DNA of 64,000 nt. Source: Lytechinus pictus (taxonomy: Eukaryota). Made by a program: the position numbers and the translations under genes. Position 1 is the first letter of the stretch. The number at the start of each line of letters is the position of its first letter. The notes beneath the pieces are model-generated. The model ran no database searches and was not told where the DNA came from. It was given only the letters and a program-made list of their open reading frames with translations. The stretch spans positions 26,662,001-26,726,000 of the forward strand of contig NC_087250.1 in NCBI RefSeq assembly GCF_037042905.1, read 5' to 3'. Below, piece by piece: positions 15,846-64,000 of this stretch.

Positions 15846-15997
15846 TGTAGTGTCGTAGCACGTACGCACGTGGCGTTCCATAGTTTTGAACGGGATTACC
15901 TTAACACACATGTCAGAGTTATGATTAAAGCATTGCTGTGAACGTTACAAATGATGCCTTAAGCCTATTAACTGTTTGTCCTGTTGACTACTTTACA
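15846..15997 (+). repeat. 5' LTR
   Basis: TGTAGTG...CTTTACA, followed by the PBS. Confidence 0.95.
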
Positions 15998-23089: not shown

Positions 23090-23241
23090 TGTAGTGTCGT
23101 AGCACGTACACACGTGGCGTTCCATAGTTTTGAACGGGATTACCTTAACACACATGTCAAAGTTATGATTAAAGCATTGCTGTGAACGTTACAAATGATG
23201 CCTTAAGCCTATTAACTGTTTGTCCTGTTGACTACTTTACA
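23090..23241 (+). repeat. 3' LTR
   Basis: 150/152 identical to the 5' LTR; preceded by the PPT. Confidence 0.95.
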
Positions 23242-31092: not shown

Positions 31093-32473
31093 TGGTGGTG
31101 ATAATGATAATGAGGATGATTATGAGGTCGATGATGATGATCATGATGGATCATGATATTATATTTGATAAACACATAATTATATTCACAGGCAGGCATC
31201 ATACTTATACAGATAGATTGGTTATGCAGATGAATAAATTTATTGATAGTTAGAAAGACATCCTGTACATAGATCAACAAACATACAAACATTACAAGAA
31301 GTTGAATTAATGAATAGACTGCTATAAAGATAGTTTGTCATCTTATTTTATTCTATTTTTTTTTTGTTGAACGAAAATCACTTACAGATTAACTCCTTGA
31401 TGTCCTTCATAATAATCATGAGAATAAATGTAGACCATGATAATGACAGTCATTGTGATGCAGACAAACTAGAATTGATCTAACCCCTTTTATGTTCACT
31501 TATTAATGGTAAATTCAACTTTTCTTTGTGTCATCTTATTTAGCTATTTAAGTCTATACACTGAGACAAAAAACATAAATTTGATGAAGAGTTGATCTAA
31601 CATCTTTTGCAATTGAGCTCTTCAATTGCTTAGTTTCTACTTATGGAAACAAATATTCAATGCTAAAGATAGTATCTTAAAATAATAATTCAAGTAAATG
31701 AATAGATTTGTAAATGGTTTGTACAGCATACTTAGAAAACTATGGAAAAAATAATGAAAAGGAAATTTACTAATTAGCAAGAAGTCTGATGATCAATATA
31801 TTAATATTTTTTTGACATTTAGCGCAAGCCTTTTTTGAAAACCTGACAGAAATGCTCCTTGTTCGCTCAACCTTAACCAAACATTGTCCTTTCTTCATGG
31901 CATTTGAAAGACAGGACTTTAGATCATCTATTGACAACAAAATATAGACATCATAATTTGAAAAAAAAATGATAAACTTAAAAACTGTCCCATTTTTTTT
32001 TTTTGGGGGGGGATACGCTCTTATTTGAAATCAGACATCATTAACTTGAAGTTACCTTTTTCCAAAGATAGATTCAAATTTTCCTATTATTGGTGCATTA
32101 TGTAGTTCCAGATCCAGTCTCAAATATGTATAATGATGTTGCTTATTTATAATGGTGGCTTTATCTTCAGTATGATTCCTTTTCATTCTCTTATCTCTCC
32201 TCTCCCTCCAGCCCCCCCCCCCACACTCACTCTCTCTCTCTCTCTCTTTCCCCCTCCTCTTTCGTTTTTATACTACGTTCTTAGAGCACCAGGGTTGTAA
32301 TTAAAAACTTTTTTATCAAAAAAACAAATAAAACGTTTTTTTATAAAAAAAAAAAAAAACGTTTTTTATTGTTTTAAAACGTTTTTTTTTTCCAACGAAC
32401 GTATACATTTTCTGTAAATCAATTAAACTATACACTTAATACAGTGCAATTTAAGCGTTTGATTACAGATAAA

Positions 32474-34915
32474 AAGATTTATTAAAAGTTTTAGACAAGA
32501 TCTCTTTATTTTTGATTGGTCATTTCTTTACACATTGACAAATGCAGATGAGTCTTATAATTATTTTTTGTCTATCTTTTCTCGGGTGTATGATATTCAT
32601 TTCCCCATCGTTAAACTGAATAAGAAACGCAAATGTAGAAAACCATGGATTACTAAGAGTCTCTTAAAATCTATTAATCATAAATATAAATTATACTGTA
32701 CGTACATTAAATGTAAAAATGAGAGAAATAAAAAGAAGTATCTTGCTTATAAGAATGCGTTGACAATTCTAGTTCGAAAAAGCAAAAAAGATTATTACGA
32801 CAATGTTTTTAAAAATACACAGAAGGATATTAGGAAGACTTGGACTCACATAAATGAGCTGCTTGGAAGAGGGAAAAGGGATCTTATACCAGATGAAATG
32901 TATCATGGTGAAAATTTACTCACTACAGATCTGCAGAAAGTTGAGTATTTTAATAAATATTTTATTAATTTGCCTGAAAATATCAGTAAAGAAATTCCAG
33001 AAGCCCAAACATCTTTCAAAGATTACATGCCAAGGCAAAATTATGCATCATCTCTATTTCTGAGACCAACATCAGTTTATGAAATCACAAGGTTAGTGTC
33101 ATCATTGAAGGCTTCTAAATCAAGTGGTTCAGATGACATTTCCCCTAAAGTTATCAAAGGTTGCATTCATGTCATTGCTGACCCACTGTGTCATGTTTTC
33201 AATAAGTCAATATCTCAAGGTATTGTTCCCATTAAGTTAAAAATCGCTAAAATCGTTCCTGTCTACAAAAAGAGTGATCGTAAATGCATTGAAAATTATA
33301 GACCAATTGCTTTGTTGCCTATCTTCTCAAAGATCTTAGAGAAAATAATGTACAAAAGATTAAATGATTATTTGCTGCATTATGATATCATGACACCACA
33401 TCAATTTGGCTTCAGGAAAAATTGCTCTACTAGCATGGGTGTATTAAACTTGATTAACACGATTATCACTGCTATGAATGATGGAAAATTTTGCCTTGGT
33501 GCATTCCTTGATTTAAGTAAAGCCTTTGACACCATTGATCACAGTATACTCTTAATTAAACTTGAATATTATGGCATTCGTGGGATGGCTTTAAACTGGT
33601 TTAAAAGCTATCTAGAAAACCGGTCACAATTTGTAGTTATCAATGGTGTCAGCTCAGAATATAGAAATATTAAATTTGGAGTACCGCAAGGATCGGTTCT
33701 TGGTCCGCTGCTTTTCCTAATTTATATTAATGATATTGTTAATTCTTCCAAATTGCTTACATATTCTTTATATGCTGATGACACCTGTTTATTACATTCT
33801 CATAAGAACTTGCAAAGTCTTATTCGGGAGGTAAATACTGAAATTTGTCATGTTTTTGCCTGGTTTTGTTGTAATAAGCTGTTACTGAATACAAGTAAAA
33901 CAAAATGTGTTTTATTTAGAACAAAGGGAAAGAGGGTCTTTGATAATATAGATCCAATAATAGTTGGTGGTCGACAAATTGAATTCAGCTCAAGTGTGCA
34001 ATTTCTTGGTGTCACAGTTGATGAATACTTGTCATGGAATTATCACCTTAATAATGTGTGTTCTAAAGTATCTCGTAATGTTGGTGTGATATCAAAAGTA
34101 AGATATTTCTTACCTCAACGAACATTGGTTTCTTTATATAATGCTCTAATTGTGCCACATTTAATGTATTGCAATATTGCTTGGGGGAATACATATAGGA
34201 CTCATGTACGTAAACTACAAGTTCTTCAAAAGAAAGCTATAAGATATGTAACAAATTCAAATTATCTGGCTCCAAGTTCCCCGCTCTTTTTGCAGTTGAA
34301 TATGTTACCATTTAATGAAATGGTCTCGCTGAATTGTGTTATTTTCATGTATAAATACCAATCCCTGCATTGTTCTTTTTTACAAGAAACTTTTGTGGTT
34401 AATTCTAAGATTCATAATTATAACACACGTCAGAGACATCTTATTCACCAACCTTATGCTAGAATTAATGCTACATTGAAATCCTTCAGAACAATTTGCG
34501 TTAAAGAATGGAATATGTGTCCTGCTGATATAAGAAGTAGCAGTACCCTGTCTCGGTTTAAGAAATTATGTCATAAATACCTACTTGATAAATTTAAGAC
34601 CAGTTGTTAGTTGCACCAGGGGGTGACATGTTTGGAGTGTGAATGTGTGTGTTTGTCTGCGTGAGTGTGTGTATGCTTGCGTGTGGGTAGTGTTCCTGTT
34701 GTGATCTTTAAATACCTTGTATTTTTTTTTCTTCTTTTCATAGTTTTTCCATGTTTGAGTAAAATATCTTATGCAGGGGCCCCTGATTACAAGCTGTGCT
34801 TCTTTGGGGTCCCAAACCTGTCATTTGTTTTAGTTCTTTATAATGTAACCATTTATTTTGTTTGTATTTTGTTCTCCTTTGACTGGTTTGAATAAATTCA
34901 ATTCAATTCAATTCA
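32474..34915 (+). mobile_element. 5'-truncated CR1/L2-group (Crack/Daphne-like) LINE
   Basis: Long RT ORF, then a 3' UTR, AATAAA and an (ATTCA)n tail; possible short TSD ATAAA. Confidence 0.92.
32535..34610 (+). CDS. LINE ORF2 reverse transcriptase (endonuclease lost by truncation)
   Basis: 691 codons without stops; [38 protein letters not shown]. Confidence 0.92.
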   Translation: MTNADESYNYFLSIFSRVYDIHFPIVKLNKKRKCRKPWITKSLLKSINHKYKLYCTYIKCKNERNKKKYLAYKNALTILVRKSKKDYYDNVFKNTQKDIRKTWTHINELLGRGKRDLIPDEMYHGENLLTTDLQKVEYFNKYFINLPENISKEIPEAQTSFKDYMPRQNYASSLFLRPTSVYEITRLVSSLKASKSSGSDDISPKVIKGCIHVIADPLCHVFNKSISQGIVPIKLKIAKIVPVYKKSDRKCIENYRPIALLPIFSKILEKIMYKRLNDYLLHYDIMTPHQFGFRKNCSTSMGVLNLINTIITAMNDGKFCLGAFLDLSKAFDTIDHSILLIKLEYYGIRGMALNWFKSYLENRSQFVVINGVSSEYRNIKFGVPQGSVLGPLLFLIYINDIVNSSKLLTYSLYADDTCLLHSHKNLQSLIREVNTEICHVFAWFCCNKLLLNTSKTKCVLFRTKGKRVFDNIDPIIVGGRQIEFSSSVQFLGVTVDEYLSWNYHLNNVCSKVSRNVGVISKVRYFLPQRTLVSLYNALIVPHLMYCNIAWGNTYRTHVRKLQVLQKKAIRYVTNSNYLAPSSPLFLQLNMLPFNEMVSLNCVIFMYKYQSLHCSFLQETFVVNSKIHNYNTRQRHLIHQPYARINATLKSFRTICVKEWNMCPADIRSSSTLSRFKKLCHKYLLDKFKTSC

Positions 34916-40812: not shown

Positions 40813-42160
40813 CAAGGGAAATATATGAGAAATGTTTCGCAGGATAAGTTTGATTTCGCCCTTTCCCCTCGACACAGCGTGAAAACTGGCATTTCTGCGC
40901 AAACAGTTTTCTGCGAGCTTTACAAAAATGGACAGTGTTCACTCAAGTGTAACATTCTGTCAAAACTTTTACTTTCATTGGATAGATGAGACCCAAATCC
41001 AGGAATATATATGAAAAAATTACCCATACAGTATGTTGTATATTTTTTAATTCCCAGGGCTTTTTCAAAGTGTAAACTTTTTTTGATACGCACTGTATAT
41101 ATATTTTTCTTGGGGTCTACTTGTCCTTTACGGTTTACTAGCTAGCTTGTACTGACTTAAAGTATGTGTCTTCATCTTTACGAAGCGCGAAAATTTCACT
41201 TGCTTTCGTGTGTACCTCAAGAATACAATGTCAGTTTTACAGTCGATTATTATGTTTGTGCAACACTTCCATTTCTTTTACTACTAATATATTACACATT
41301 AGAACTTATTTTAAATAGTGTTTCTTTCCCTGTCTAAAAAGTGAGCACAACACTCAGATGTTGGTTATAATGTGAATATTCTATAGATTGATGTGCACAA
41401 TTGAACAAGAGAATTTCAAGGAACACGATAAAGTGATGGATAAAGAGAGAATAGGGGGGGAAAGAGAAGGGGGAATAAGAGTGGTGTTGAGAAAGAGATT
41501 TAGTTAAAAGAAATCAAAAAAGAAAAGTATTTAAAAAAAAATTCATCAAAAATCTTTTCCACGACCATGCATATTTATAACACACAAGTCTATGAGGTGT
41601 TTTAAAACATGTTTTTTTTGTAAAAAAAACGGGTGTTTTAAAACGGGTTTTAAAACATGTTTTAAAACACACCGTTTAAAACGTGCCAACCCTGTTAAGA
41701 GCACTAAGAAACTTAGCTGTAATTTGTGCCATTGAGTATTACTACTATTAGTATTACTATTAAAATTAGCATTATTAATCAATACATAAAATATCCCTTT
41801 TGAGCAACTGCAATCATCAATTATAATCAAATACATTATTTAAAGTATAAAAGAAATCATTCCGGATTTGCACAAGAAGCCACTATTTTGCACATTCTGC
41901 ACCATTATGTATAAAATAAATTTACTGAACCATATACTTACTATACTGCTGCTTGTTTTTTTTCTTTTGAAGTATCTGAATTTATGTATAATTTATTCGG
42001 AACTTCAAAATGCAATTAAACGCCATTCATCAAAGCTATTATCTATATTATCAACATTGTTTTATCAGTATTACTTCTTTGTTGTCAGTATGATCACTGT
42101 CATTATACTGTCAAAATTATAATAATTATCATTTTCCAATGAATAGAAATATGGACAAAC

Positions 42161-42227
42161 CTGCTTCTTGTGGATTTAAGTCTCCGTCATCGGTACCATT
42201 TCTTTGCGATTCCAAACTCTGTTGATC
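42161..42227 (-). CDS. Roco small exon (DQQSLESQRNGTDDGDLNPQEA)
   Basis: gtgtacag| acceptor and CAG|GTTTGT donor; 67 nt, phase 0 to 1; needed to bridge the phases of the flanking exons. Confidence 0.78.
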
Positions 42228-42426
42228 CTGTACACATAACACATCATAATTTGACATCTGAAATAATCATTAGAAAGCCAAAAGTATGTTTATAATTTTC
42301 ATATATCCTCTATTCATATGTCTCTCTCATTTGTTTACTTCCATTAAACAAAATGTTATTTTGAAAATACCAAAGGCCTAGATTTAATTCAGTCATGAAA
42401 AGGGCAATCCTATTAACAAGGAAGAT

Positions 42427-45400
42427 TTTTTTTTCTATTTATCCTCAATTGAGGTAATTTATTATTCATAAAATGTCAAAAGATACAGATTTTTACAATA
42501 ACAAAATTCACATCATATCACACAACAATATTTTACAAGAAATACAAAAAATACAATAAAATATGTTACTTACACTACCAGTCACAATTCCTCGGCCCGC
42601 TGTCACCCGTCGAGAACCAGAGAACAATAGATTCAGTGGACTGAATCCATTATTCTCCGGCTCCAACAGGCCAGCCAACAGCGGACCAAAAAACCGTGAC
42701 TGGTAGTGTATTCACACAAAGTAAAAACGTATCTTACGCAACTCAGTTTCATTAAATCTTTTCTGATTATATTTTAAACTTAGGTGAAATCTTATTTCTG
42801 CTTTAAAATATTTAAATAGATAGTTTCCATGTAACACATGTTTCTCTTTATCATTACATTCTTTGACATAATTCTTATATACAGTATATTGGGCATAATT
42901 AAGGATGAAATTGACGAGTTTTGTTTTTCGGTTGCCTATATCATATCCTATAATAATCCTTTTTTCATTAATGTCAATATCAAGGCCAAGAATATTCCGA
43001 ATAAGACACGGAACTATTTTCCAAAATAACCTTACATTTTTGCATGTCAATAAAAAATGACATATAGTTTCCTTGCAATTGCAAGTACGACATGAATTAT
43101 CATTCGAAATTCCCCATTTGCATAAATTGTCTTTACTGGGCAATATTCTGTGAAAAGTTTGAAATTAAATTGTTTTATTTTATTGTCATTAATTTGCTGA
43201 AATTTGAATTTAAATACTTCGCTCCAATCAAATTCGTTTGACAAGTCTGAACGATCTTGCCAAAAATATAAACAAACGGGAACTTCTTTATATTTATACA
43301 AACTATAATAGTGTTTAGCTAACATTTTCTCGACATTTATTGAGTCACCTGTTGCTAACTCAATCACATTTGGTTCTTCTGTTTGTAGCCGTTGTGGGGT
43401 TCTTGTATTACGTAATTTCTCTAACCAGAAGTGTGGAAATGCCTTTTTGAGTTTTGACAATTCGAAAGAAGTAAGCAATTGTCTGCGGTTAGAATAGTTG
43501 CTAATACATGAAAAATCTTTCCAATTCCCATCTTTTATAATCTGTCCCACTTTATAAATCCCCTCTTTGATCCAGTTTTGAAAAAATAACGTTTCTTTCT
43601 CATGTTTTATATTACTATTATACCAGATAATTTCTTGGTTTACATTGCAAACATTAAACATATGAATATACTTTACAGTGTATTTCAGACCACGATTTAA
43701 AAATGTCAATGTAAAACACTGGTAACTGTTTTCTTTCGCATATTCTTATATCATTTTTTTGGCAATTAAATCTCAAATACATAGGAAAGTCAGAAATTTT
43801 ACTGATCCAATAATTGAATAAAATTTTCCATGGTGTTTTTTCACCTGAGATATATTTTTGAATCCATGATAAACGAAGAGAAGAACATTTGTAAAGTAAA
43901 TTGACCTTCTGATGCCTCCTTCTATTTCAGAATTACAGCATACATTTCGCTTGACCTTTTCAGCTTTGGAATTCCATAAAAAAAGTATATTAATCTATTT
44001 ACCAATTTAATTATTTTCAATGGTACTGGGACTGCTATTGCTGTATATACTGATTAAGAAGTGACTAAATGCTTTATGACAGTCACCTTCCCATACAAAG
44101 TTAGTTTTCGCATTTTCCATAAATCTAAAGTACTTTTAATTTTCTTCACTTTACCTTCCCAATTTAAGTTTTCAACTTCTCTATGAAATTTTCCAACGTA
44201 AACCCCGAGACATTTTATAGCATTATCTGTAAATTCTAAATCCTCAGTGTTTGGACATTGATATTTAATCTCATGTACTTAGATTTTGACTGATTAATTT
44301 CGGGACCGGCATTTTTACCAAAATGTTATATTTCTCTCATTATTTCTTTGACAGAGTTGACAGAATCTGCAAAAATTGTAGTATCATCTGCAAACTGAAC
44401 TTTGCGAATATCTATGAAATCTGAACAATCTGATTCAGGGTTAGGTACTTGAATACCTCTAATTTGTTGAATTCTGTTTAATTTTTGCTCATAAAACTTC
44501 TGCCAAAATAATAAACAAAAGGGCAGACAATGGACATCCTTGTCTTAAACCCTGTTAATCGAAAACCTTTTAGATATCCAACCATAATTCATTATTTTAC
44601 CACTGGCGTTATTATTCAAAGTCTTAATCCATTTAATACACAAATTTTTAAAACCAAGTTATTCTAGTAAAGTGAATAAGAAATTATGATTAACGGTGTC
44701 AAAGGCTTTCTTAAAGTCTAATGACATAATGATACCATGTGTCTCAGTACTTTGACAAAAATCAATTATGTCCTGTACAAGTCTAATGCATTCAAGTGCA
44801 GAACGATTTTTCATAAAACCAAACTGATCTTCAGATACAATGCAATGAATAATTTTCTTCAATCTAACAGTCAAAACACGAGCTGCTAATTTGTAGTCTA
44901 TATTAAGAAGTGATATGGGCCGCCAATTATCTAGAGGATTTTTGTTGCCCTTTTTATACAAAAGAGTAAGGATGGCTTGACTTTGAGTTGAGGACAATTG
45001 TGTTTTGTCATATCCCTGATTCAGGCTGGCAACTACCATCTGTTTCAAGTCCTCCCAAAAACATTTATACAATTCAAAACTTAGGCCGTCACTACCAGGA
45101 GATTTGTTCAGATTCATTGACTTTAGTGCAAGCCAACATTCATTTTCTGTAAGCTTTCCCTCACATATATTTAATAGCTTCTTCATCATTCAAAACATAT
45201 AACTTTAAGTTACCTATATATTCTTTAAAATCAGATCTTACATAATCTTTTTGATACAGTTTAGTATAGAATTCATGTATATTTGACTCTAGTCACCTTG
45301 CTCTTGATCGAACATACGCACCTTTGCATTGATATTCATACCCTTTATTGATCTTACGTTTTAAACGACTAATTTCGTCTACATCTTTGCTACGTTGATC

Positions 45401-45781
45401 TTTATCTAGTTTTTCACAAAGTTGATTATATCTTTTTTCAATGTGTGTTTATGTTCCCTCTTCTTCCTTGACACATCAGAAGCATACTTAATGCTGAACT
45501 CCTTTATTTTAACTTTACACATCTCCCACTTCAATTGATTATCAAAATTGTTATAATCCATTTTGATCTTTTTAGTAACATTTGTTATGCCTTTTTTATA
45601 TATTTCATCATCAAGTAAGGAATTGTTCAATTTCCAAAAACCCTTTCCCCTCTTTTTTGTTGTCACCTGAAGTTTCATCGAAACAGCATTATGATCACAC
45701 TTTAATACTGGTTTAATATCAAGAGAATGCACATACGGAACAAATGCCTTGGAGACTAGCCAATAATCAAGCCGTGAATAG
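42427..45781 (-). mobile_element. 5'-truncated, disrupted L1/Tx1-clade LINE
   Basis: End of endonuclease (SRLDYWLVS, DHNAV, GKGFWKLNNSLL); RT (KSPGSDGL, NWRPISLLNIDYK, LDFKKAFD, QGCPLS, QFADD); C-terminal CCHC (CRTC..HFLLTC); poly(A) tail; flanked by an identical 38 bp direct repeat. Confidence 0.92.
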
Positions 45782-45825
45782 TCAGTCATGAAAAGGGCAA
45801 TCCTATTAACAAGGAAGATATTATG

Positions 45826-46118
45826 TGGAGCGTTGTGGCCCAGTGGATTAGTCTTCGGACTTCGAAACTGAGGATCGTTGGTTCAAATCCCAGCCATGGC
45901 GTAATTTCCTTCAGCAAGGAATTCATTCACAGTGTGCTGCACTCGACCCAGGTGAGGTAAATGGGTACCGGCAGGAAGTAAGTCCTCAAAAGGTTGTGTG
46001 CACCTGAATATGTAGCCTAGCTTAGCCGGGTAATAATAATAGCAGGGCCCACTGGGAGAACAGTTTTCGGAACTGAAGTGGCTATCCTTGGTGAATATGC
46101 CGTTATTATTATTATTAC
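45826..46118 (+). mobile_element. tRNA-derived SINE with Deu/Nin-like core
   Basis: A box TGGCCCAGTGG, B box GGTTCAAATCC, core CACTCGACCCAGGTGAGGTAAATGGGTACC, (TTA)n tail. Confidence 0.85.
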
Positions 46119-47336: not shown

Positions 47337-47401
47337 CTGTGTTGGAGCTACACTCAGTTTCTTCGCTGCTTCATCTGCAAGGGCTTTATTGTATTCACGG
47401 T
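47337..47401 (-). CDS. Roco small exon (DREYNKALADEAAKKLSVAPTQ)
   Basis: ttccacag| acceptor and CAG|GTAGAT donor; 65 nt, phase 1 to 0; absent from the ORF track. Confidence 0.82.
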
Positions 47402-47588
47402 CTGTGGAAGTCAAATCATATATAACGACCTAATTATATGGCCAAACAAACAATAAGTCCCAAGAGAATTTTCTCTGTAAATAATAACATTAACTAGATT
47501 TTAAATCGTCGTAAGGACGAATTAGACGGTCTGTCATCAATTTTCATAGAGTTCAGTAATTTCAAATACATATTGCTCAAATCACTAA

Positions 47589-47768
47589 CTGGGCGTTGTG
47601 GCGTGCGCCTGTAATCCAAGCTGTGGGGAAGTTACAAATTGATGCAGAGGTTCGAGGTTCGAGCCCTGGTCACGTCTTTCGGATGGTGACGTTAAAGGTC
47701 GGTCCCAGACGTAAACAATCATATCTGATTGATACACGTCTGACAAAACTCAAATACACACAAACACA
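47589..47768 (+). mobile_element. Putative 7SL-headed SINE, or a 7SL pseudogene chimera
   Basis: CTGGGCGTTGTGGCGTGCGCCTGTAATCCAAGCT matches the 7SL/Alu 5' end. It is followed by a B-box-like GGTTCGAGCCC (47656-47666), an unrelated body and a CA-rich tail. Confidence 0.65.
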
Positions 47769-48154
47769 TTATCATCACCATCATCATCATCATCCTTACT
47801 ACTATCATCATCATAGTCATCAGCATTATTACCATCCTAATTATCATTTAAGAAATGCCATCACCCATACAGCTAGATTACAAGTAAAACAAGAACAAGT
47901 GGATCTCGTCGGACAGTCTCCCTTGCATTGCACGACTCGATATAGCAGCAGTGCTGACTTTGAAAACAGCTATTAAATAATTATTACTAAAAAACACTCA
48001 TATGATAATGAAATAATATAAATCGTACCTGGCAAATGATCAAATCAATATTAAATAAAAGAAAAAAAATCACCCCCAACACCATAGTTTGTGATGAAGG
48101 TCGATCGTCCGACCCGTTCCAAATAGCAAATACTTTTATTTATTTATTTATTTT

Positions 48155-50750
<2,596 letters not shown>

Positions 50751-51902
50751 AAAAATATCATGTCGGTAGACCTTAAATGACTTTTGATTCATGATCATGT
50801 TACCTAGCACGCGCGCAGAACAATCATGCACACGTGATTACCCTCATGTCTATGTTTCATGAACTACATGTGTAGATCCATAAACCCTCTACACTGTAGG
50901 TTGCGATGCCAATTAAACAAATGAAGAGCTTGATTCCAAAAGGGGATAAACACAGTTTGACCAAATTTGAATCCTTGTCATCAAGATATGGTTTTTAGAC
51001 ATGAGAATGAAATGCACCACATCGCATCTAAAAACAAAATGGGAAGGTACTAATTTATTGCAAATTTGAGTTTCATTCCAAAAGACCTAAATCCAAAACT
51101 GTTTTGTTCCAAAAGGAGCTTAATCCACTACCACTTTGTGTTATGTGTTACTTTAGGATTGACCAGAGTGAATGTTGGTTTATGCTTCTCACATGCCTAA
51201 GAAGTGTGTATGAGATCCTGAAAATAATTTTATGGCATCAAAATGATCATTAAAAAAAATACTTAGAAATTTGAAAAATATTAACCGAGCTTTATCGAGC
51301 GGTGTAGACTCGGGTAAAACGCAATGTATGTAACACCACAAATGTTTTACTATGATGAGGGTTTTTGGCTGAAATTATTCTACAAGTAACTTTTATCTCT
51401 AAAAGGGGGGCGGGTAGCCATTATATACGTTATCAACCTTTATTTTGTTTGCATTATGTCTGGAGTTCATGTCATTTTCATGGAATGGAAGAGGAATCGT
51501 CCTCGCCGTGCAAAAATGAACGGCAATGCACACCCCACACGCGCTGCGATGACTGCGAGGAATAAGAATTACTGTTTTTGATCAGGTTTTGGGGGAGGGG
51601 GGGGGGTTGTGCCAAGTAAAATCAGCTCTAACATGAAAACGGGCAAAAATGGGCAGCGTAAATAGACATTTGGCAAATGATGATGACAGAATTTAAACGG
51701 AAATCCATGGAAATCTTAACGTTTTTAATGGAAATTTAAAAAATTTATTATCCGCCTCTTTCGAGGAATAATTATCCTATAATCCTCCTGAAATGTTGAC
51801 ATTTTGATCTGGAAAAAAAATTGACAGCTTAATGGACTCTTTAATAAAGAACAAGATATTTATCAAAAAAAAATTATTGCAAATCAAAGCGGGAGTTCTT
51901 TT

Positions 51903-52180
51903 GATAATAATAATATATAGCTGTATTTATAAAGCGCTTTTTGCCTGAGGATACAAAGCGCTGCTATTATTACTCCAGCTTTAGCTCGAGCTACCATCAC
52001 CGGCGCTCAGTGCATACAAGGAATTAATCCTGCCGGGTACCCATTCACCTCACCTGGGTAGAGTGCAGCACAGTGTGGATAGATTTCTTGCTGAAGGAAA
52101 ACATGCCATGATGAGGATTCGAACCCACGACCCTCTGTTTAAAAGGCGAGAATCAGAACCACTAGAACACGACGCACCCG
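51903..52180 (-). mobile_element. tRNA-derived SINE with the same head and core as the 45826 copy but a different tail
   Basis: Minus strand: B box GGTTCGAATCC, core CACTCTACCCAGGTGAGGTGAATGGGTACC, tail AGCGCTTTG..AAGCGCTTTATAAAT then (TTA)n. Confidence 0.85.
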
Positions 52181-52806
52181 CACCCTTTTGAGGTTTATAA
52201 CTGAAAATGGGACATTCTATTCACCTATTTAATCATAAAAGTATAAATTTTTGCTACTGAAATGATGCGAGCGTGAAGCCATGAAAAGTGGACATTTTGA
52301 GCACGATTTTAAATAAAGAACGAGTTGTGTATTTCGATCTCGCTTGCTGATTCATGTGTAACATTACAGTCTTATTTTATTCTTTCACATGCGGAATTAT
52401 TGGGGGGGGGACAAAACGGTATGTTTGCCCCACCCCCAACTATTTTCATTGGTGGGACGATCGCCCCCCCCCCACCCCACCCCAGGATCGACGTCTCTGA
52501 TAGTGGAGATTTGTCTTCCCAGTTCAGCTTTTATTGCATTGTTTACATTATGTAATGTTATTTTGAATGTATTTCATCTGTAAATATCTTGTGTTGCATT
52601 CTTGTTTATAGGGGCTCCATGGAAGATCAACAAATAATACAACTAATCGATCGTTCAACTGCTCTGAATTGTGACTGAAGCCTCAGTGGAATTAGTATAT
52701 AATGGATTTCCGTCCGACATTTTTAATTATGAGGTTAAAGTTAAACTCCCATGAGAATATTAACAAATTTTAGGTCATGATTTTACTTTGATGGAAAAGT
52801 GTTTAC

Positions 52807-52940
52807 CTTTAGTTTCTTCATTGTCATGTCCTTTCTTGTGAACAGACCAAAGTTTACCACCAGCTTTTGCGACCTGGATGTTTATGTCGCAAATGTTTGT
52901 CGTATCTACGCCGTCTGTTTTTCCTTCATTCTTATCAAAC
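52807..52940 (-). CDS. Roco exon with Roc G2 (GFDKNEGKTDGVDTTNICDINIQVAKAGGKLWSVHKKGHDNEETK)
   Basis: ttctgctctag| acceptor and AAG|GTAAAC donor; 134 nt, phase 2 to 1, fitting both neighbours. Confidence 0.9.
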
Positions 52941-54740
52941 CTAGAGCAGAAAATATAAAATACCAATACAAATTGTATTATGTCTGATAACATATAGGCC
53001 TTCTTGTACAGGCAATAGCTGAAATGAACTAAAATAAACAGGTAGAAATATGACTGAGCGAATTACTGATTGTATTGATACAAAGTAGTTAATTGGGCAA
53101 AGGGCATTAGGTAAAAAAATGCCTTAAACATTTTTGGGGAACCAACCTGGACTTTTGGAATACTTGACCACTGACTGTCCTTAAAACTTGTCCCGATGTA
53201 TTACTTGAAACTCCAAACCATTGAATAGAAACAAAATTAAAAACAGTAGAATAATTAATTGATGTTTTTTTATGTCTAGGTTTTGGCAGCAATTTTTGAA
53301 GTCATCTTGGACTTTTAATTACCTTTGTCTGCTTGTGTTTACTCTAATTGAATTAATAGATCTTTTACCCTTTATAACCGAGAAATGTACACTGAAATGT
53401 GATATGAAGGTTGGATAATGAGTGAGTTATTTCCATTTTCTGTCAATGTTGGCTGAGTTCGACGCCACCTTGGATTACGGAAAACCCTCAAAAAGGATGT
53501 AAAAGGCATTTTAGTATGTTATTTTAGACATATTACTGGATCTATCCTGGAAAATTATCAGCTTGTAACCACAAATTTTCATGTTCAACCTAATGTTCTT
53601 GGCCTAATTAATTTCATTGTTATTATGCATGGTATTTATCATCATGGTTTTAAAGATTATTTGTATAACTCTTATTATTACTAATATTATTATCAATATT
53701 AGTATTTTACCAGTATATTTTAGAGATTAAAACGAGCAGTATTAGTACATTATAATCGTTATTATTAGGAGTAGTATTATTATTCCTATTATTATTGTTG
53801 TAACTATTATTTACACGTGTTATCATCATTATTGCAATCTTTATTATTATCAATAATACTAATAACTATTAATGTAATCACCATTATACTTCTTTTCATT
53901 ACTAATATTTCTTAATGTAATCATTATTACCAATATTGTTACAGAGAAGTTGAAAACATTTCATGCATTATTTTATTGTATTGACTTCAACTGCTGTTGT
54001 AAGAAACAATTATTAATTGTTTCGTTCCATTCTGGACTTGAGATATTCTTAGTTTTATTTAAAGTTGCTAGAATCGAGCAAGTATGTTCATTCTATGGAC
54101 AGTGAAGTACGGAGGACGAGACAAGCATCATTTTACTGAGCTTGTCCTGAAACCTACGCTACTTCATGCTTAATCATTAATTATAATGATGATGATGATG
54201 ATAATGATAAGAACGACAATTATGAAAAAAATAATAATTGTCACTTCCTTCTGCCTTCATAATTATTTAGGACAGCGTCCAGTGATTTTGCCAGTAGCAA
54301 AATGATTTCGAAATGTTCCTCTTTGACCCTGAACCACTGACTATTAAAATATAATTATTGTAATTATACAAATATAAGCCATTTTAAAATTCATCCAACA
54401 ATTGTGTTGAAGTCTTCATAAAAAATCAGATTGCATATGATATTATACTACATGTACGACCTTCATGGACATTTGACCTTTGATCTTTTGAGCATATATG
54501 CTTTATGTGATCATCATTACTCCTGTATAAATGGATAGGGATTATGATCGATTCATTTATTTCATTTCAACTCTCCCACCAATAAGAGCAATACCGTCTC
54601 AATCCTCTCTGATCCTTATCTTTGTCAATTTTCTTTTCAAACCAGCACCTCTTTGTCGAAAATCGTTCCCAGGTCCATGAAAATGATATATAGTTGGAGA
54701 AAAAAGAAAAAAAGGATAGTGAGAGAAAAAAAAAACTTAC

Positions 54741-54996
54741 CCTTGACCTGTAAGACTTTTCTTCAAGCTTGTCTTCCCAACGCGCTCTTGTCCCACAAGC
54801 ATAAGACGGGTTCGGAAGACTTTCTTTCTTCCATCTTGAGCAGCTTCGGCATATGCTTGACGAACCCTCGGGTCCCGAGCAAGGATTTCCGGCGGTGCCG
54901 AAAGACAGCCGAACGAAATATCGTCCCCTCTGTTATCCGTTTCAGGTTTGAGAGGAGCAGCCTGGTAGTCTCTTTCATCGAGTTTACCTGCATCAT
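54741..54996 (-). CDS. Roco exon with Roc G1/P-loop (..APPEILARDPRVRQAYAEAAQDGRKKVFRTRLMLVGQERVGKTSLKKSLTGQG)
   Basis: Donor GG|GTAAG at 54741. Acceptor is either AAG|54996 or CAG|54987; both are phase 1. Confidence 0.9.
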
Positions 54997-55161
54997 CTTT
55001 AGAATTAACAAACTTGAGAATGGTAATGAATGAAATACTTATAAGTAGGATACCCATTACATTCTTGATCTGGTAGAGTTACTACAACTAATAAGACGCA
55101 ACCGAGAATGAGCCACTGAAACTCAGTTGACACTTGCACGCATTGTGGTTCGCACATTGGG

Positions 55162-55800
55162 CCGTATGCATAAAGACAAGCAATTGCTTATAAGCAAATG
55201 CTTTAAGCAAAAGCAAGAGCTGGTCAAGCAAAAGGGCAAGTTCAAGCAATTGCTTAAATTCGTATGCACAAGCTTTTGCTTGTGCTGAAACCTTTTGCTT
55301 GCACTGCCTAAGCAATTGCTTATGTGTTGGACAAAGGATCGTTACGGCTGTGCGAACATCGCACAGTAGGACAACGACGCTTCGTTCCCGACCTGGCAGA
55401 AGTATTTTTTATTACGCAAATAGGGGGAAAACAGCGCAGAGCATCAGGGGGGTTTCTGTGTAGATCGATGGACACAAATTGCTGTAAAAAGTCTAAAATA
55501 ACAGGAATTTGATTAGATATGAAATCACAACATAACCTCTGGAATATGGAGCTTGAAACGGCATGAAAATTTAATCCTTAAACGAGAATGCCATGAGTAA
55601 GCAAGAGCTCAAGCTGGTCTGGAGGTGCTTGAAAAAACGCAAGCAATTGCTTATCAAGACAAGTAAAAGGATTGTTTTATGCATACGGTTTTAAGCAATT
55701 GCTTGTTTGGTAAGCATTTGCTTACGAGTAGTAAGCAATTGCTTGTGCTTGCTAGCAAAAGCATTTGCTTGCAAGCAATTGCTTATGTTTATGCATACGG
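55162..55800. mobile_element. MITE with CCGTATGCATAAA termini and AAGCAATTGCTT palindromes
   Basis: About 60 bp imperfect TIRs (CCGTATGCATAAAGACAAGCAATTGCTT / AAGCAATTGCTTATGTTTATGCATACGG). Confidence 0.7.
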
Positions 55801-56637
55801 ATTCAAGTAAAAGGCTAGCTTTTGTTTGCGCATGGAAACGCACTGTTACGATCTTATAAGCGACTCGGTCTTAACATGCAACTCGCAGCGTAAGTTCTCG
55901 AAAAAGTGTTCTATTGCAAATAACGTCTGCTACCGGTTTCACGCCTGAACTTGAGGCGATCTTCAGGCAGACTGACGTTGTTGACTATTTATGTGGTGTG
56001 GCGGGTCAATTTGACGCTTCGGTGGTTTCCGGTTTAGTCTCGTTTGGTGTCTGCACTTTGAAATAAGTTCCAACCTTTTGTTTAGTGAGTTTCTGTTTGT
56101 TTTTATGGATACTTTTCAATGTTCTTTTCCTTCAGATTCCAGGGGCGGATCCAGCGTTCACCAAGGGGGGTGGCCCGGATTTTTTTCAGCCACATTTTCC
56201 CCGATCGGCCGCTCGAAGCTAAATTTTGTTTGTTTATATATAAATATATATAAATATGTTAATATAATATCATAAGCCTTATTTAAAAAGTACGAGCGCA
56301 AAGCGCGAGCAGAAATTTTTAATATACGTTTTGATCTGATGAAAAAGGATCTGTTAACGGCAGCTTGTAGGCCATGGAGACGTTACACATTTCAAGTATC
56401 AAATAATGCGACCGCGAAGCGCGAGCTGAAATTTTGACATTTTAACCTAGAGAATGGAAAAGGAAAAGTTTAACTAAATAATCTAATTAAACTCGAGATA
56501 TTTGTAAATCATAAAAAGGATGAGTAATTGGAAATCTTCCTGCTTAATAATGCGAGCGCAAAGCGCGAGCAGACAATTTTTGATATTGTGATCTGAAATT
56601 GGATAATGATTTATATTTATATTTATTTTTAATATAT

Positions 56638-59600
56638 GTGGGCCATCCTGGGAAAATGGGTATTATAGGTGAAATTTGGGATTTTTGTTTTTTTATGTTT
56701 TCTGGTACCTGGACACATGTACAATGTGTATAAAAAATATTAGAGTCTAATTCATATTTAAATTAGAGATATGGCCAATTGAATCAGGGGTACCCCCCCC
56801 CCTGCCTGCCTGTATGGGTCGTCATGGTAGTCGGGCTTATTATTCATCTTTTCATGATAGGGAAATGTTGGTGCTTTTGTAACGCCCAACATACCTGGCA
56901 TACGCGAGGTGATCTTTTGTAGTGCAGACATAATTTCATATATATACACAGCTAGGTGAATACAATAAAACAAATTATTCTACATATTCAACCACACCCA
57001 CACTAGAACCCACACCCACACACTCACATTACATGCAAAAAAAACCCTTATGGAGACTATTTGTAATACTATATATAGTTCGTCATAGCGCGTAGTTTTA
57101 ACATGGGAGGAGGTTCCCAGATCCAATGACCAGGGGCAGATGGTGTTGGATTATTCATCTGATTTTGTTGTTGTTGGGGGGGGGCAGCTTATCTTTTTTT
57201 TGGGGGGGGGTGCCCACCCCCACAGGCGCCGCAGAAATTTTTTTTGAAAATGGGAGGGGCTAACCATGCAAAAAAAAATCACAATCAAATGGTATTTTTT
57301 TTTACATGTTTATACATGCGTTCTGGGGGGAAAAAAGTGGGGCCAAAGCCCCTGCCCACCTCCATCCTAGATTTGTCCCTACCCATAACCCCCCCCCAAA
57401 AAAAAAAAATAGACACCACCTTGCTGTTTGTCCATACTTCACTTTCTCGTACAATCTAAAAAAAGAATCATGCTTAAGCTTTGGAAAATAAACACAAACA
57501 AAATTCAATTTTGTAAAACCAAGTTTTTTCGGTGGCAATAAACAATAGTGAAAAGCTGATGCGAGCTACATTTCATAAAGATTTAATATGACAGCAACTC
57601 TTCAAGAAATATCAACTCTCTTTGAAGTAGCGAATCAGGAAGCAGAAGGTTCACTGTTTTCATTCGAGCAAGGGATCATATCAACATTTCATGAAATGGG
57701 CCACATTTGGTTTCTTTTTAGGGATGGGGAAGTCATGAAAATATATTTCACAAATTGCTGCCTTGTCCTCATCTAAGATCTTTCCATATATCATATTCCC
57801 TCTATTTGGAAAATCCAGTTGATAGCTTATCTGGGAGTATCTGAGAGAGTATGTCAGCAGGATTCACCAAAGGGGATAATTTTCTTCCTCTGCATTGTTT
57901 GTTTTCTTCATGTTCCAGTCTTAAAAATGCCACGTTCCGATGACTCGAATCTGCATGTTTGATGAATACATACATAAAAACAATCACAGTTCACCGATAT
58001 TAATGTGTTATAAAAACAGGCACATTATACTCTCATTTCTTCATGATTCATGGACATTTATCAACAACATGATATTTAACATACATTACCTTTTCACTCT
58101 TTGACTTTGTGTAAATGTTACTTATAAAGGTGGAAGTACTCCCTGATGTCATATTTTTCTACCAAAAATAATAAGATTAAACTATTGTTGGGTAAAAAAA
58201 AATCCCTCCTAAATTCATGAGATGTTCATATTTAAATGTTTAATTTTGATATATCACTTGCAAAAAGTTTTCTCTGCATGAGCCTTTATCCAAATTCTAT
58301 ATTTTTTCATTTTTTATGGTTTTTATCATTTTATATTTTTTTATATTTTCCATAATTCTAGATTTTATGTACTAATAGTGGTAAAATTAATTTTAAAACA
58401 ATATCTTATAAAACGGCAATTAACCAAATTCGTGGAAAAATCGGTTACAACTGACATGATAAAGTCAAAACTGGCACACTATTTCCATACAGAAAATGGA
58501 TAAAGCATGGAAAGCTACCTGAAGCTGTGGTAATGGTGAATCCCATATCAGAGTCTTAAAGTACTTCTTGAAGGGCTGCTGTCAGCTGTATGTTGGTTCT
58601 GAGATGTCTTGTCCTCACTGCACTAATACAGTTGCTCTGTAGATACCGTGCCTTTAACATGTTTAACAGAACGAAAGAAAACAAGGCCAATTAGTTAACA
58701 AATTTTCAGAGTTAAAGTTTATTTTAAAAAAAAACTACTTAAGAAAAAAAAAAAAAAAAAAAAACAATTAAAACTATAATAATTTTTTTTTATTTTCAAA
58801 AATATGCCTTTTCATTTTTTTTTTAATATTGAATGATTTTGTGTAGAAAGTTGGCGAACCTCATGTAATGTAGCTCGACCAGATTGTAGATAAAAATAAG
58901 AAATACCCCCCCCCCCCTCCCACCCGCCCCCAAAATATATTGTTATTTTTTAATTAATTTCTTATAAATTGTGACAATCTGTTTTCTAGTTATAATTTCG
59001 ATATCATTTGCACAGCTTTGGTGAACCTCATACCAAATGGACCCCACTCCCTCCGAAAAAAAACCAAATTTATAATCAGAAGTCCGACAAATAAGAATTT
59101 GTTAGGAGAGGGGATTTGAAAAATGTCCATAATTAACCGATTTAAAAGGGTACTCCGAGCTGAAAATAATTTCATCAAATGTAAGCAAATGCTGCAAATT
59201 TCATCAAAATCTGATAACAACTAGATCTAAAAGGGTTTTCCATGCATTATAAAAACAGTTATATGCACGTCTTAATAAATATTCGTTAGATGGGCTGATG
59301 ATGACACCCCACTTTAACTTTTCTTATATCAAAACATGAAATCATAGGATGGGGGGTTGGGTGTCAGGACACTTTATATTTTTGAAGCCTTCTTTTTTGT
59401 CTTTGGATTACACTAAAAATACGAATTCAATACTTGTAATCATCTTCTATTTTGTTCTTTATAATATTTCCTAACATTTTGTACTAAAAATTGATGAAAC
59501 TTCACTTGTAATTTTTTCCAAATGACTTTCTAAAATTGATCGTCCGGACACACAACCTGTCCGGACACACAACAACTGGGTATACTTATTTTATTTGGTC

Positions 59601-60428
59601 ATACGTGTGTGAATGATATGTCACCCTTTTGCATTAATTAATATCTAGTCTTGGAGGGGGGGGGGAATAGAACAAACATAATTTCATGTAACAAGGTGAG
59701 ACATCTTTGCATCAGTTTGTCAAGTAAATTCATAAAAACATGCATAGAACTGTTTCACCGAAATCCATATCTTTAAATTATCATAGCTCTTTTACTCCTT
59801 GTCCAATTTTGATTTTTTTTATATACATTTTTTACAAACTTGTTGCATGTGATAGATTTATCTTACATGGTTACAAGTATGTAACAAAGGCCTATCTAAG
59901 TAGGTGCAGATCTAAATCTAGTTGATAGCCTAGGCAGACATAAGTTAGATGTTAAAAAGGCCGTCAAAGTCCTGGACAAATACCGCAAATCGCTGCAGCA
60001 GTCGCATGTAATTTGACGTTTAAAGTCGTTCCTAAAAAAGCTCTCTCTCGATCGATCCATATAAACACGCAACACAAAATTCACATTCACACGTTTAGTT
60101 GCCATGTTCCTCGCATCGCAATTATCAATTAATTTAACAAAACAACTCAATCTGCAATATAGTTTAACTTACCTTCATGGATTTCAGCCAAGGGAATTAA
60201 ATCCAATCAACATATATCCGAACCCGCCACCAAATATATCGAGCCGATATCCACAGTTCTGAAAAATAAAAATGCGCCTGACATTTTTTTTTATTTCCCG
60301 CCGGTTGTTTGTTTTGTTTTTCCTCGCGACGCGCGCCAGACAAAAGTTTGATGACACGCGTATTTAAATGACGTCCTAGCGCATTTATTGTCTCTCACCA
60401 ATAGTCTGGTTTTCGCGCGACGCCATAC
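56638..60428 (-). mobile_element. Decayed DNA transposon with an intron-containing transposase relic (Sola1-like)
   Basis: ATAT on both flanks and weak TIRs (12/19). Relic exons 58519-58651 and about 57600-57950 splice to TYS*QQPFKKYFKTL/GIHHYHSFRFESSERG. Confidence 0.5.
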
Positions 60429-61697
60429 ATATGTTTTGATCTGATCAAAAAAGGATCTTTTAACGGCTGCTTGTTAGCCATGAAGACGTTACATTTTTTA
60501 TCTATCAAATAAAGCGAGCGCGAAGCGCAAGCTAACAATTTTGACATTTCTACCTGAAGAATTGAAATTCTAAGAACTTTTTGTAATCGTGAAAAGGATA
60601 AGTATATAACTAAACAATTGACGCGAGCGCGAAGGGCGAGCGAAAAAAATCTGGAGACTCCATTCATGTTTTTAAATCATGAGAAGGAGGAGTAATTTGA
60701 GATTTCCCTACATTAATAACGTGAGCGCAAAGCGCGAGCAGACAATTTTTGATATTGTGATCTGAAATTGGATAATGATTTAAATAGAGAACAATCTGCA
60801 GATCTAAATCAACGCGTGTTTCAGATTTCGACACAGTATATGGGTATTCTAAATACCTTTATTTTCATGAAAATCAATAAAGCGAGTGCAAAGCGGTAGC
60901 TAAAAATATTTGATATTCGCATCTAGACAGAGTCAATTTAAGCTCTGTATTTCAAGCACTTTGTGGGAAAATTGTAAGGTGGATATGGATCACAGTTAAA
61001 AAAGGGATGATGTCTAATTGATATTACTTTGAGTTTTTGGTATAAGACCGGGACATTATGTCATCATATGAAAATGATGACTATCTTCCTATTTCTCTTC
61101 TTAAGAATGATGGCGCGAAATCTGTAAATATTATGGCCTGAAAACTGGACGTTTAAAACACTTTTGTAATTATGAATAAGATGCATGAGTTAAATATCTC
61201 TTAACAATCAATGCGAGCAGAAATTGCGAGCCGAAATTTTTGATAAACTATTATCAAATTGGAAATTTGAATATAAATGTACATAACTCACCCATCAAAA
61301 TGTGAGAGTGCAGCGCTAGCTGATACGTTTTTACAATCTGACCCGAATAGGAATATTTTGATAACTTTATGGAATACAGGAAAATAATAGGTACCTGACA
61401 TATCAAAGTTTGCGAGCGCGCAGCGCAAGCAGAAAATGTTAATATTCAGACCATAAAACATAAATTTTTACAGAGAATTTTTTATATCAATTTGTAAATA
61501 AAAAAAATAATGAAATTACTATTTCTGAGCTGAAATATGTTTTGTATATTGACTTTAATATTTGATATTTTAAGCTCCATATTGAGCAAGATATGTAAAT
61601 CACCTAAATGGCAATGCGAGTGCAAAGTGCGAGCGAAAATGTTATATCCCGACATGAAAGATTTTTTAATCATTTTCCAAGTCTTCCCCTCAACTTA

Positions 61698-63857
61698 ATA
61701 TTATGGTCAAATCTAATAAAAAGAAATATTTTCATAAGAAAATTTTTTATTGTAAAAATAACAGCAGCGAATTATGGAAATGTATTAAAGAATTATTACC
61801 TTCAAAACATAAATCTTCCTTGAATAAGATTGTTTTTGATGGAAATGAATATGATGATCCACTGAATATTGCCAACCATTTTAATGATTATTTTGTGTCA
61901 GTTACTAAAGACTTGATTGAAGATTTTAGTGATGTCACTGATATTAATTCTTCACCACATCAAACTGATCATCCAAACTCATCCCAAGAAAATTTTCTTT
62001 TTAACTTACCGATAGTAAATTCCGATAAAGTCACAAAGGCTATTAAAACTTTAAATACAAATTCGTCTTGTGGCCTTGATGGAATAAGTTGTAAAATGAT
62101 TAAATTATGTGGTCACGTTTTGATTCCTTCTTTAGTATCTTTGATAAAAAATTCTTTTTCATCCTGCTCTTTTCCAAAGGAATGGAAGGAAGCTAAAAAT
62201 TTTCCCCTTCATAAATAGGGTAGTACTGAAGAAATTAATAATTATAGGCCGATTTCAGTGTTAAGTATTGTTTCCAAGATTGTAGAATAGATTGTTAATA
62301 CAGAACTAGATTCGTTTCTGAATGTTTCTGGATTATTATGTGAAAGCCAATTCGGGTTTAGAAAAAAACATTCAACTGAAACTGCATTAGTGTATATGGT
62401 TAATGATTGGTATACAAGTATTAGTAATGGGAAAATGGTCGGTGTAATTTTAAAAGGCCTTCGATTTGGTAGATTTGGATTTGCTGTTATTAAAATTGCA
62501 AAAATGTGGTTTCTCATCAGACTCAATCAAATGGTTTAATTCTTATCTATTTAATAGATCACAACGTGTTAATATAAATGGGGTACTTTCTGAAACTAAA
62601 GAGATGCGGAAAGGAGTACCGCAGGGATCCATATTGGGCCCAAAATTATTTTCCATATTTATAAATGATATGCCTAATGTAATGAAACACTCTAAAATAG
62701 TTACGTACGCAGACGATACATCTATTTATGCTGAAGGTGATAGTTTAACTGAAATACAAAATAAATTACAATTGGATTTAGAAAATGTAGCCTGCTGGTT
62801 AGAAAAAAACCGTATGATGATGAATTATGAAAAAACAAAATGTATGATTATTGGTACACGTGTTCGACTTGCAAACTCTATTCATTCCAATGAATCTCAG
62901 TTAAAAATAATTTGTAATGGTCACGAGATTATACAAGTTCAATCCTTTGAATGTTTAGGTATTCTTATTGATAATGAATTATCATGGAAAGAACATGTAT
63001 CTAAAGTAGCCAATAATGTTAGCAGGGAGTTAGGTATCCTACGAAGGTTAAAAGGTTGTGTCAATGAAAATACTTTACTCACTTTATATAATGCTATGGT
63101 TTTGCCATTTCTAGATTATTGTTGTATTGTCTGGGGGGATAAATTCAAAGAAGATACCGAAAGATTGAATAAGTTACAGAAAAGAGCTGCAAGGATAATT
63201 TTAAATGCCCATTTCTTGACCCCTTCGGAAAATTTATTTGCCCTCTTAGACTGGAAAAGATTTGAAGATAGAGTTCGCATATTTAGATTTATTTTAATGT
63301 TCAAATGTATGAAATGTATTTCTCCCACTTGTCTGTCCAAACTATTTACTTTTAGGAAAGAAATTCATTCACACTGTACAAGAAGTTCCTCACAAAATAA
63401 GTTACACTTCCCAAAATGTCATATTGAATCATTCAAACACTCATTTCATTATCAAGCCGTCTCATTATGGAATAGTCTTCAACCTGAACCTCAAAACATA
63501 AATTCCCTCACAATTTTTAAGAAATATTTAAACGGTAACCTTTAAATCCAGTTGCAGCTTCTTCTTTTTTCCAATAGTAGATATCTCCAATGTCAATTTC
63601 GATTATTATGTTCTATGTATGTATATTCCCTTCTTTCCAATGATGTGCGTAGTTAATAGTTATTTATAGTTTCATTTATATCTTACTTCAACTATTATGT
63701 TATATTACAATGTATGTATATTTTCTGTTAATTTTACTGTGTATAATAAGATATATTGTGATTGTTTTTTTATATGCAGGACCCCAAGGGAGAGCAATTT
63801 TTATGTTGATTGGGTATCCTGTTGAAATATTGTTAATAAATAAATAAATAAAATAAA
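61698..63857 (+). mobile_element. 5'-truncated CR1/L2-group LINE with a disrupted RT ORF
   Basis: NYRPISVL, QFGFRK, GVPQGSILGP, YADD; in-frame stops at about 62216 and 62288 and a frameshift near 62455; (TAAA)n tail; AACTTA on both flanks. Confidence 0.9.
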
Positions 63858-64000
63858 CTTATTTTATTAACTCGTCTTCCTCTTCTTATGTTTTACTTTT
63901 TTCTCCTCTCTTTTCCCTTTTTTGTCTCTTTTTGCTCCGCCTATAGGGGGGCCGGGCCCCTGGGGGCCCCCTGGATCCGCTTATAGATTCCATATGAATT

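Follow-up and report, generated by a model that had tools for sequence, protein, structure and literature searches.

In the available text of papers from 2020, 2024 and 2026 (among them PMC7245038 and PMC13023118), SINEs derived from 7SL RNA are counted from no groups other than Euarchontoglires, hagfish and shrew moles. Those reported all keep both ends of 7SL RNA over nearly the same deletion. In Alu, FLAM and B1 of Euarchontoglires and in Urop of the shrew mole (PMC13023118), the Alu 5′ domain comes first, with the A box inside it, the 5′ and 3′ parts of 7SL RNA are joined over a central deletion, and the elements terminate in poly(A), with L1 as their partner. SINE1-1_EBu of the hagfish Eptatretus burgeri (Kojima, 2020; PMC7245038) joins a 7SL head to a body and tail that come from an older tRNA SINE; it contains 96 nt of the 7SL 5′ part, the 7SL B box and the 7SL 3′ end, and has a bipartite RTE tail rather than poly(A), with target-site duplications (TSDs) of ~17 bp. 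Further literature drawn on comprises PMC3531059, PMC10886601, PMC5786205 and PMC11481361.

Two other systems are close in part. The 46-nt 5′ domain of 7SL RNA is sufficient for Alu retrotransposition: as the engineered minimal Alu domain SA46 (Moldovan, Yin and Moran; PMC11760393), with an external promoter and poly(A) in a human L1 assay, it binds SRP9/14 and supported ~86% of full Alu retrotransposition, against 7% for the 3′ domain. SA46 is without a B box and cannot amplify further, and the same paper's ribosome model for Alu depends on competition by poly(A) for L1 ORF2p. In the composite-head DeuSINEs AmnSINE1, SINE3-1 and OS-SINE1, 5S rRNA precedes a partial tRNA, after which the Deu/Nin domain starts, and the fusion of 5S rRNA to partial tRNA is ascribed to template switching (PMC4824008, PMC4758252, PMC4494074, PMC5804259, PMC3747384). 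Nin is described in the DeuSINE papers as a part of Deu, with versions that hold only its 5′ end known from other animals.

The element described here has, like SINE1-1_EBu, a 7SL-like head on what appears to be an older tRNA SINE body, and a tail that is not poly(A); unlike it, the element has 46 nt of 7SL, a B box of tRNA type, a putative Deu start, a different tail, no clear TSD and an invertebrate host. It shares with Alu, FLAM, B1 and Urop the leading Alu 5′ domain and the A box within, but is without the 7SL 3′ part and carries three non-7SL modules after the head. The head is the same 46-nt unit as SA46; here the fusion is natural, the B box is the element's own and the tail carries a hairpin. 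As in the composite-head DeuSINEs, a probable Deu/Nin start follows an apparent tRNA remnant, but 7SL rather than 5S rRNA stands before the remnant, and only ~37 nt of Deu are kept. SINE2-3_SP, a sea-urchin DeuSINE, has according to its listing a tRNA head and CR1 as partner.

Modules of the element and its host intron

A sequence check of the window (the whole 64-kb stretch of DNA analysed) located the 180-base element on the + strand at 47589..47768, where the sequence-only reading had placed it, with the head beginning at 47588. Its modules and surroundings are as follows.

47588..47633, + strand: head of 46 nt, 5′ sub-domain of the 7SL (SRP) RNA Alu domain by likeness (RF00017 model positions 1-45), aligned as a closing helix and two hairpins with a U-turn motif between the hairpins
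~47593-47602, + strand: A-box equivalent, placed by analogy with human 7SL positions 6-15 (PMC7245038)
47634..47646, + strand: AT-rich linker of 13 bases that contains the head-body junction, without likeness to RF00017 positions 46-60
47647..47669, + strand: tRNA-like 3′ half, with variable-loop-like bases and a T-arm, recognised by eye
47647-47660, + strand: 7-base direct repeat within the tRNA-like 3′ half
47656-47666, + strand: B box by pattern match (9 such matches in the window)
47669..47705, + strand: putative conserved SINE domain of Deu/Nin type, represented by a shortened 5′ start, from a by-eye alignment with AmnSINE1
47706..47742, + strand: 3′ hairpin with a 7-bp outer and a 6-bp inner stem (−14.4 kcal/mol), a candidate LINE-recognition signal
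47743..47770, + strand: A/CA-rich tail, 3′ end approximate
47771..47835, + strand: degenerate trinucleotide (CAT-type) repeat, either an extension of the tail or a pre-existing target
47409..52792, − strand: intron of a Roco (ROC-COR) gene that hosts the element, bounded by flanking P0001 exons

The order of the modules (head, B box, conserved body domain, hairpin, simple-repeat tail) is canonical for a SINE. What was observed directly is the four modules in this order, together with the host and the position in the intron. Repeats resembling the CAT-type repeat are also present at other sites of the window that have no element.

The window is AT-rich animal DNA. A Lytechinus pictus protein matches the exon at 54740-55057 with 100% identity and ranks first of 53 matches among 328 candidates; the next 23 species-named matches all come from sea urchins. 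By tblastn, the P0001 exons map to the − strand at 54740-55057, 52793-52939, 47337-47408 and 42132-42242, on both sides of the element, which is therefore antisense in the Roco intron, ~180 bases from the next exon; the COR-A domain is encoded further down the gene. The Roco gene spans ~1227-55075 (−) in at least 14 exons, with longer relatives mapping down to ~1.2 kb. P0001 (204 aa) covers only four of these exons, whereas relatives of 1,000-1,300 aa map over the whole span, so the public annotation of this gene may be split.

Likeness of the head to 7SL RNA

In a permissive Rfam cmscan of 47400-47950, Metazoa_SRP (RF00017) at 47588-47680 was the best of 11 matches, with 31.6 bits and E = 1.7e-6 in the 551 bases scanned, which by our own arithmetic corresponds to ~2e-4 for 64 kb. 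The other ten were set aside: a Mir-1268 match (E = 0.013) overlaps the SRP match, and nine snoRNA matches had E = 0.087 or worse. A strict Rfam scan of the window at gathering level gave 0 matches, as 31.6 bits is below the RF00017 gathering score of 70. No SRP match at E ≤ 0.1 was found elsewhere in the window (1-47500 and 47634-64000). Since two plant-miRNA models score E = 3.5e-6 and 1.5e-4 at other window sites, the size of the SRP E-value alone is no proof, and the case for a 7SL head rests on identity together with kept pairing.

Counted by eye against the RF00017 consensus, which is not the host's 7SL gene, the head is identical at 29 of its first 35 bases and at 35 of 45 over model positions 1-45, with one inserted base (47588-47633). 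By eye, 28 of the first 30 bases agree with the hagfish SINE1-1_EBu 5′ end that the supplement of PMC7245038 prints. All three pairs of the closing helix are kept, two of them (1:44 and 3:42) through changes on both sides, and so are the three pairs of the second hairpin; pair 10:17 of the first hairpin is broken. The U-turn motif and the bases of the inter-loop pairing equal the consensus. The head folded no better than its shuffles (z +0.62; 150 of 200 equally good). After model position 45 the 7SL likeness ends: pairing is broken in many places where positions 46-60 align, the alignment skips 221 model positions, and the segment aligned to the 3′ end of the model, with low posterior and broken pairs, is better read as a probable T-arm and Deu start than as 7SL.

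These results confirm what the sequence-only reading observed and support its interpretation in part. It had put the first 35 nt at 27/35 by eye against the vertebrate 7SL 5′ end, had described a kept helix, a UGUNR motif and loop-loop bases there, with likeness stopping thereafter, and had named the Rfam metazoan SRP model as a check. The model does match, under its gathering score. The likeness starts at 47588 as described, but continues to ~47633 rather than 47622, so that the closing helix is included. With the RF00017 match and the sea-urchin protein match, the central claim, a 7SL Alu-domain 5′ head (47588-47633) on a non-7SL SINE body in an invertebrate, is supported as far as sequence likeness goes.

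The body and the predicted promoter

A B box, a SINE-like segment and a CA-rich tail had also been proposed, and each is present. The T-arm region has, by eye, a 7-base T loop with the invariant positions and four of five T-stem pairs, and the T-arm/B-box segment resembles, again by eye, the B-box regions of tRNA-headed hagfish SINEs (Fig. S3 of PMC7245038). Neither ARAGORN nor the Rfam models called a tRNA in this segment, and as no tRNA model matches it, we infer the tRNA origin of this 3′ half from these features. The SINE-like segment is indeed SINE-like, and can be named more closely as a probable 5′ start of the Deu/Nin domain: 28 of 37 positions at 47669-47705 are identical to the start of the AmnSINE1 Deu domain, with one gap (a by-eye alignment to Fig. 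S4 of PMC7245038, with no statistic). Since the Deu domains printed in that paper are 131-142 nt long, about three quarters of the domain would be absent from the element. The Meta domain (66 bp) was rejected for the same segment, which by eye has no likeness to the Meta consensus printed there, and the element is accordingly no MetaSINE.

Of 200 shuffles, 199 fold less well than the body at 47636-47768 (z −2.64), and 194 of 200 less well than its part at 47672-47750. The predicted internal Pol III promoter consists of an A-box motif plus a B-box motif only (~47593-47602 and 47656-47666), spaced by 53 bases; SINEBase treats such boxes as an indication only. There is no run of four T between 47625 and 48133, the first being at 48134, so Pol III could transcribe through the body.

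Copies, insertion hallmarks and partner LINE

The window contains one copy of the element. Weak likeness to the Deu start and tail at 60005-60092 (+) was rejected as a second copy (nhmmer E = 0.58) and may be an old relative or chance. The search for a target-site duplication gave a longest exact flank repeat of 9 bases, a length that 112 of 2000 random pairs reach. The element has no poly(A) tail, its tail matched none of the 3′ regions of four LINEs of the window above background, and no parent with a tRNA head and the same body was found in the window.

In a run word index queried with 47380-47775 (38 words), 20 of the 24 listed runs (9 studies) contain 0.26-0.40 of the words; none of the 24 contains half of them, and no RNA run is among those listed. 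Six of the 20 have only 1-6 million letters and one is labelled as a second organism, and 'organism A' of the index need not be the window's species. This pattern is what a repeat would give, yet we do not take it as evidence for one, because which words were matched is unspecified. A gapped head-plus-body pattern had 0 matches in viral contigs and four in metagenome contigs, all four of them chance, with no likeness between the anchors; neither set is expected to contain sea-urchin DNA.

A SINE of ordinary type, with a tRNA head and both promoter boxes (A and B), occurs in two copies, at 45828-46040 (+) and ~51990-52180 (−), which are 82% alike over 123 nt. Its head and body are unlike those of the studied element.

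Comparison with known SINE classes

By likeness, the element is SINE1-like in its head and Deu-type SINE-like in its body. Kojima's broad definition of SINE1 is a 5′ head homologous to 7SL RNA, and the head (35/45, against the consensus) agrees with it; the element would fit the definition only once its copy number is shown. Membership of the Alu/B1/Urop/SINE1-1_EBu type was rejected, as the likeness ends at model position 45 and there is no whole Alu domain. For a DeuSINE or Nin assignment there are the 28 of 37 identities to the AmnSINE1 domain start, by eye and with no statistic, with about three quarters of the domain absent. SINEBase asks for at least 100 interspersed copies of one structure, and its rule, which asks for 60% or more identity with tRNA, 5S or 7SL along 60 nt or more, leaves the element out at 78% to 7SL over only 46 nt; because the head is composite, this rule suits the element poorly. 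Finally, a 7SL gene or a plain retrocopy of one (~300 nt with the S domain, or 7SL plus poly(A)) does not agree with the 221 skipped model positions and the non-7SL modules that follow.

No 7SL-headed SINE in an echinoderm or other invertebrate was found in the literature searched, which was mostly open-access, with Repbase and Dfam outside its scope; an unpublished repeat-library entry for the element is possible. An Alu-like SINE was reportedly described from amphioxus in 2006. It is not counted in the available text of the 2020, 2024 and 2026 papers on 7SL-derived SINEs; if that report stands, the element would not be the first invertebrate case, yet it would still be the first outside chordates. 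The literature agrees with the sequence-only reading that 7SL-derived SINEs are rare, but its list of Euarchontoglires, hagfish and amphioxus omits Urop of the shrew mole.

Origin of the head and competing explanations

We consider it quite probable that the element belongs to a multi-copy SINE family whose head derives from 7SL, and its multi-copy status is likely. This reading has in its favour the head's likeness to 7SL with kept pairing and a body that Pol III could transcribe through; a family is favoured because the module order is intact and canonical, and because any one 64-kb window would rarely happen to contain a one-off chimera but often a family member. Points against it are the single copy in the window, a TSD search no better than background, a tail unmatched among the four LINE 3′ regions, a B-box segment that no tRNA model matches, the broken helix pair and shuffle-like fold of the head, the shortness of the by-eye Deu match and the missing poly(A). 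In the proposed route, the first 46 nt of 7SL RNA would have taken the place of the tRNA 5′ half in a tRNA-headed Deu/Nin-type SINE, with template switching during reverse transcription as the most likely mechanism; precedents are the 5S rRNA fused to partial tRNA in DeuSINEs and SINE2-3_SP, a DeuSINE of another sea urchin. RNA polymerase III would then read a hybrid promoter, judging by its motifs, with an A box from 7SL and a B box from the tRNA remnant, which would supply the box that SA46 is without. The 5′ end of the transcript may fold as an Alu 5′ domain and bind SRP9/14, which would bring it to ribosomes making LINE reverse transcriptase, and some LINE could recognise the 3′ hairpin and CA-rich tail and copy the RNA to new sites. 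We infer the capture of LINE machinery via the Alu domain from PMC11760393 and PMC7245038, and give the step through SRP9/14 and the ribosome about an even chance. That the 46-nt graft spread because SRP9/14 helps to capture a non-L1 LINE reverse transcriptase, without poly(A) or the 7SL 3′ segment, and that this is the first 7SL-headed family outside vertebrates, is a fuller claim that we would put somewhat short of even.

The SRP9/14 step, though not the family itself, is opposed by the explanation that the 7SL piece is an A-box donor only (perhaps also protecting the 5′ end), with no SRP9/14 role and LINE capture by the 3′ hairpin alone. Because the Alu model needs poly(A) competing for L1 ORF2p and the element has none, this rival remains strong, and we regard it as a substantial possibility, if below even. 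A tail of hairpin and simple repeat is of a type tied to stringent LINE recognition, 5S heads took over from tRNA heads as promoters in other DeuSINEs, and the head may retain its fold merely as a recent copy of 7SL. Against it, the junction lies at the end of the 5′ Alu sub-domain, ~30 bases past the A box, at the boundary of the minimal active unit, and in hagfish SINE1 the Alu fold is retained alongside a partner other than L1 (PMC7245038). The family itself would be absent if a LINE enzyme copying a tRNA/Deu SINE had switched once to 7SL RNA, leaving a single chimeric retrocopy that never amplified. The one copy in the window agrees with this, but all modules look intact, no tRNA-headed parent with the same body is present in the window, and the sampling argument above runs against it; we consider it unlikely.

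Two explanations remain. The decayed 5′ half of a tRNA-headed Deu SINE might mimic an Alu domain through the shared A box, by chance or convergence, as the 31.6 bits against a threshold of 70 and the similar E-values of unrelated models on other window hairpins would allow. The 35 of 45 identities nevertheless extend over both hairpins and the U-turn motif, far past the 10-base A box, 28 of 30 bases agree with hagfish SINE1, no tRNA was called on the element, and the tRNA-headed SINE at 45828-46040 carries a different head, which makes this very improbable. Slighter still is the chance of a vertebrate origin, whether as a contaminant, as an Alu read joined in by mis-assembly or as an Alu/SINE1 piece gained horizontally. 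The closeness of the head to vertebrate 7SL-derived sequence speaks for it, but the 5′ domain ranks with the best-conserved parts that the RF00017 consensus has, the element lies within a sea-urchin intron whose flanking exons match a Lytechinus protein, and the sequence after the head is not 7SL, nor is it the RTE-type end that hagfish SINE1 has.

If the reading as a family with a 7SL-derived head is true, it would represent a further independent origin of 7SL-headed SINEs and the first in an invertebrate. The 3′ part of 7SL would then be dispensable when another RNA provides the B box, and the family would be a natural test of the minimal-domain model, in which the 46-nt SRP9/14-binding unit is enough. 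Such a case would also allow a test, in an embryo model that is tractable, of whether the Alu 5′ domain boosts LINE capture generally through SRP9/14 or acts as a promoter piece only.

Other repeats in the window

Fragments of LINE reverse transcriptase frames lie at 32463-34610 (+), 62454-63545 (+), 49709-50663 (+) and 42712-45882 (−). The one at 32463-34610 (+) is an open frame of 715 aa, and the 3′ region after it ends with a repeat of five bases. Gag-pol remains of an LTR retrotransposon occupy 18547-21597 (+) in three frames (RT, RNase H and integrase zinc finger), and its LTRs may be the two copies of a 153-nt direct repeat (15845-15997 and 23089-23241), which are 98.7% alike. Two hairpin-forming stretches, 747-918 and 24713-24889, match plant miRNA models below their gathering scores and are probably inverted-repeat elements. 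A tandem array at 28462-29379 has a unit of ~180 bases, with units ~74% alike.
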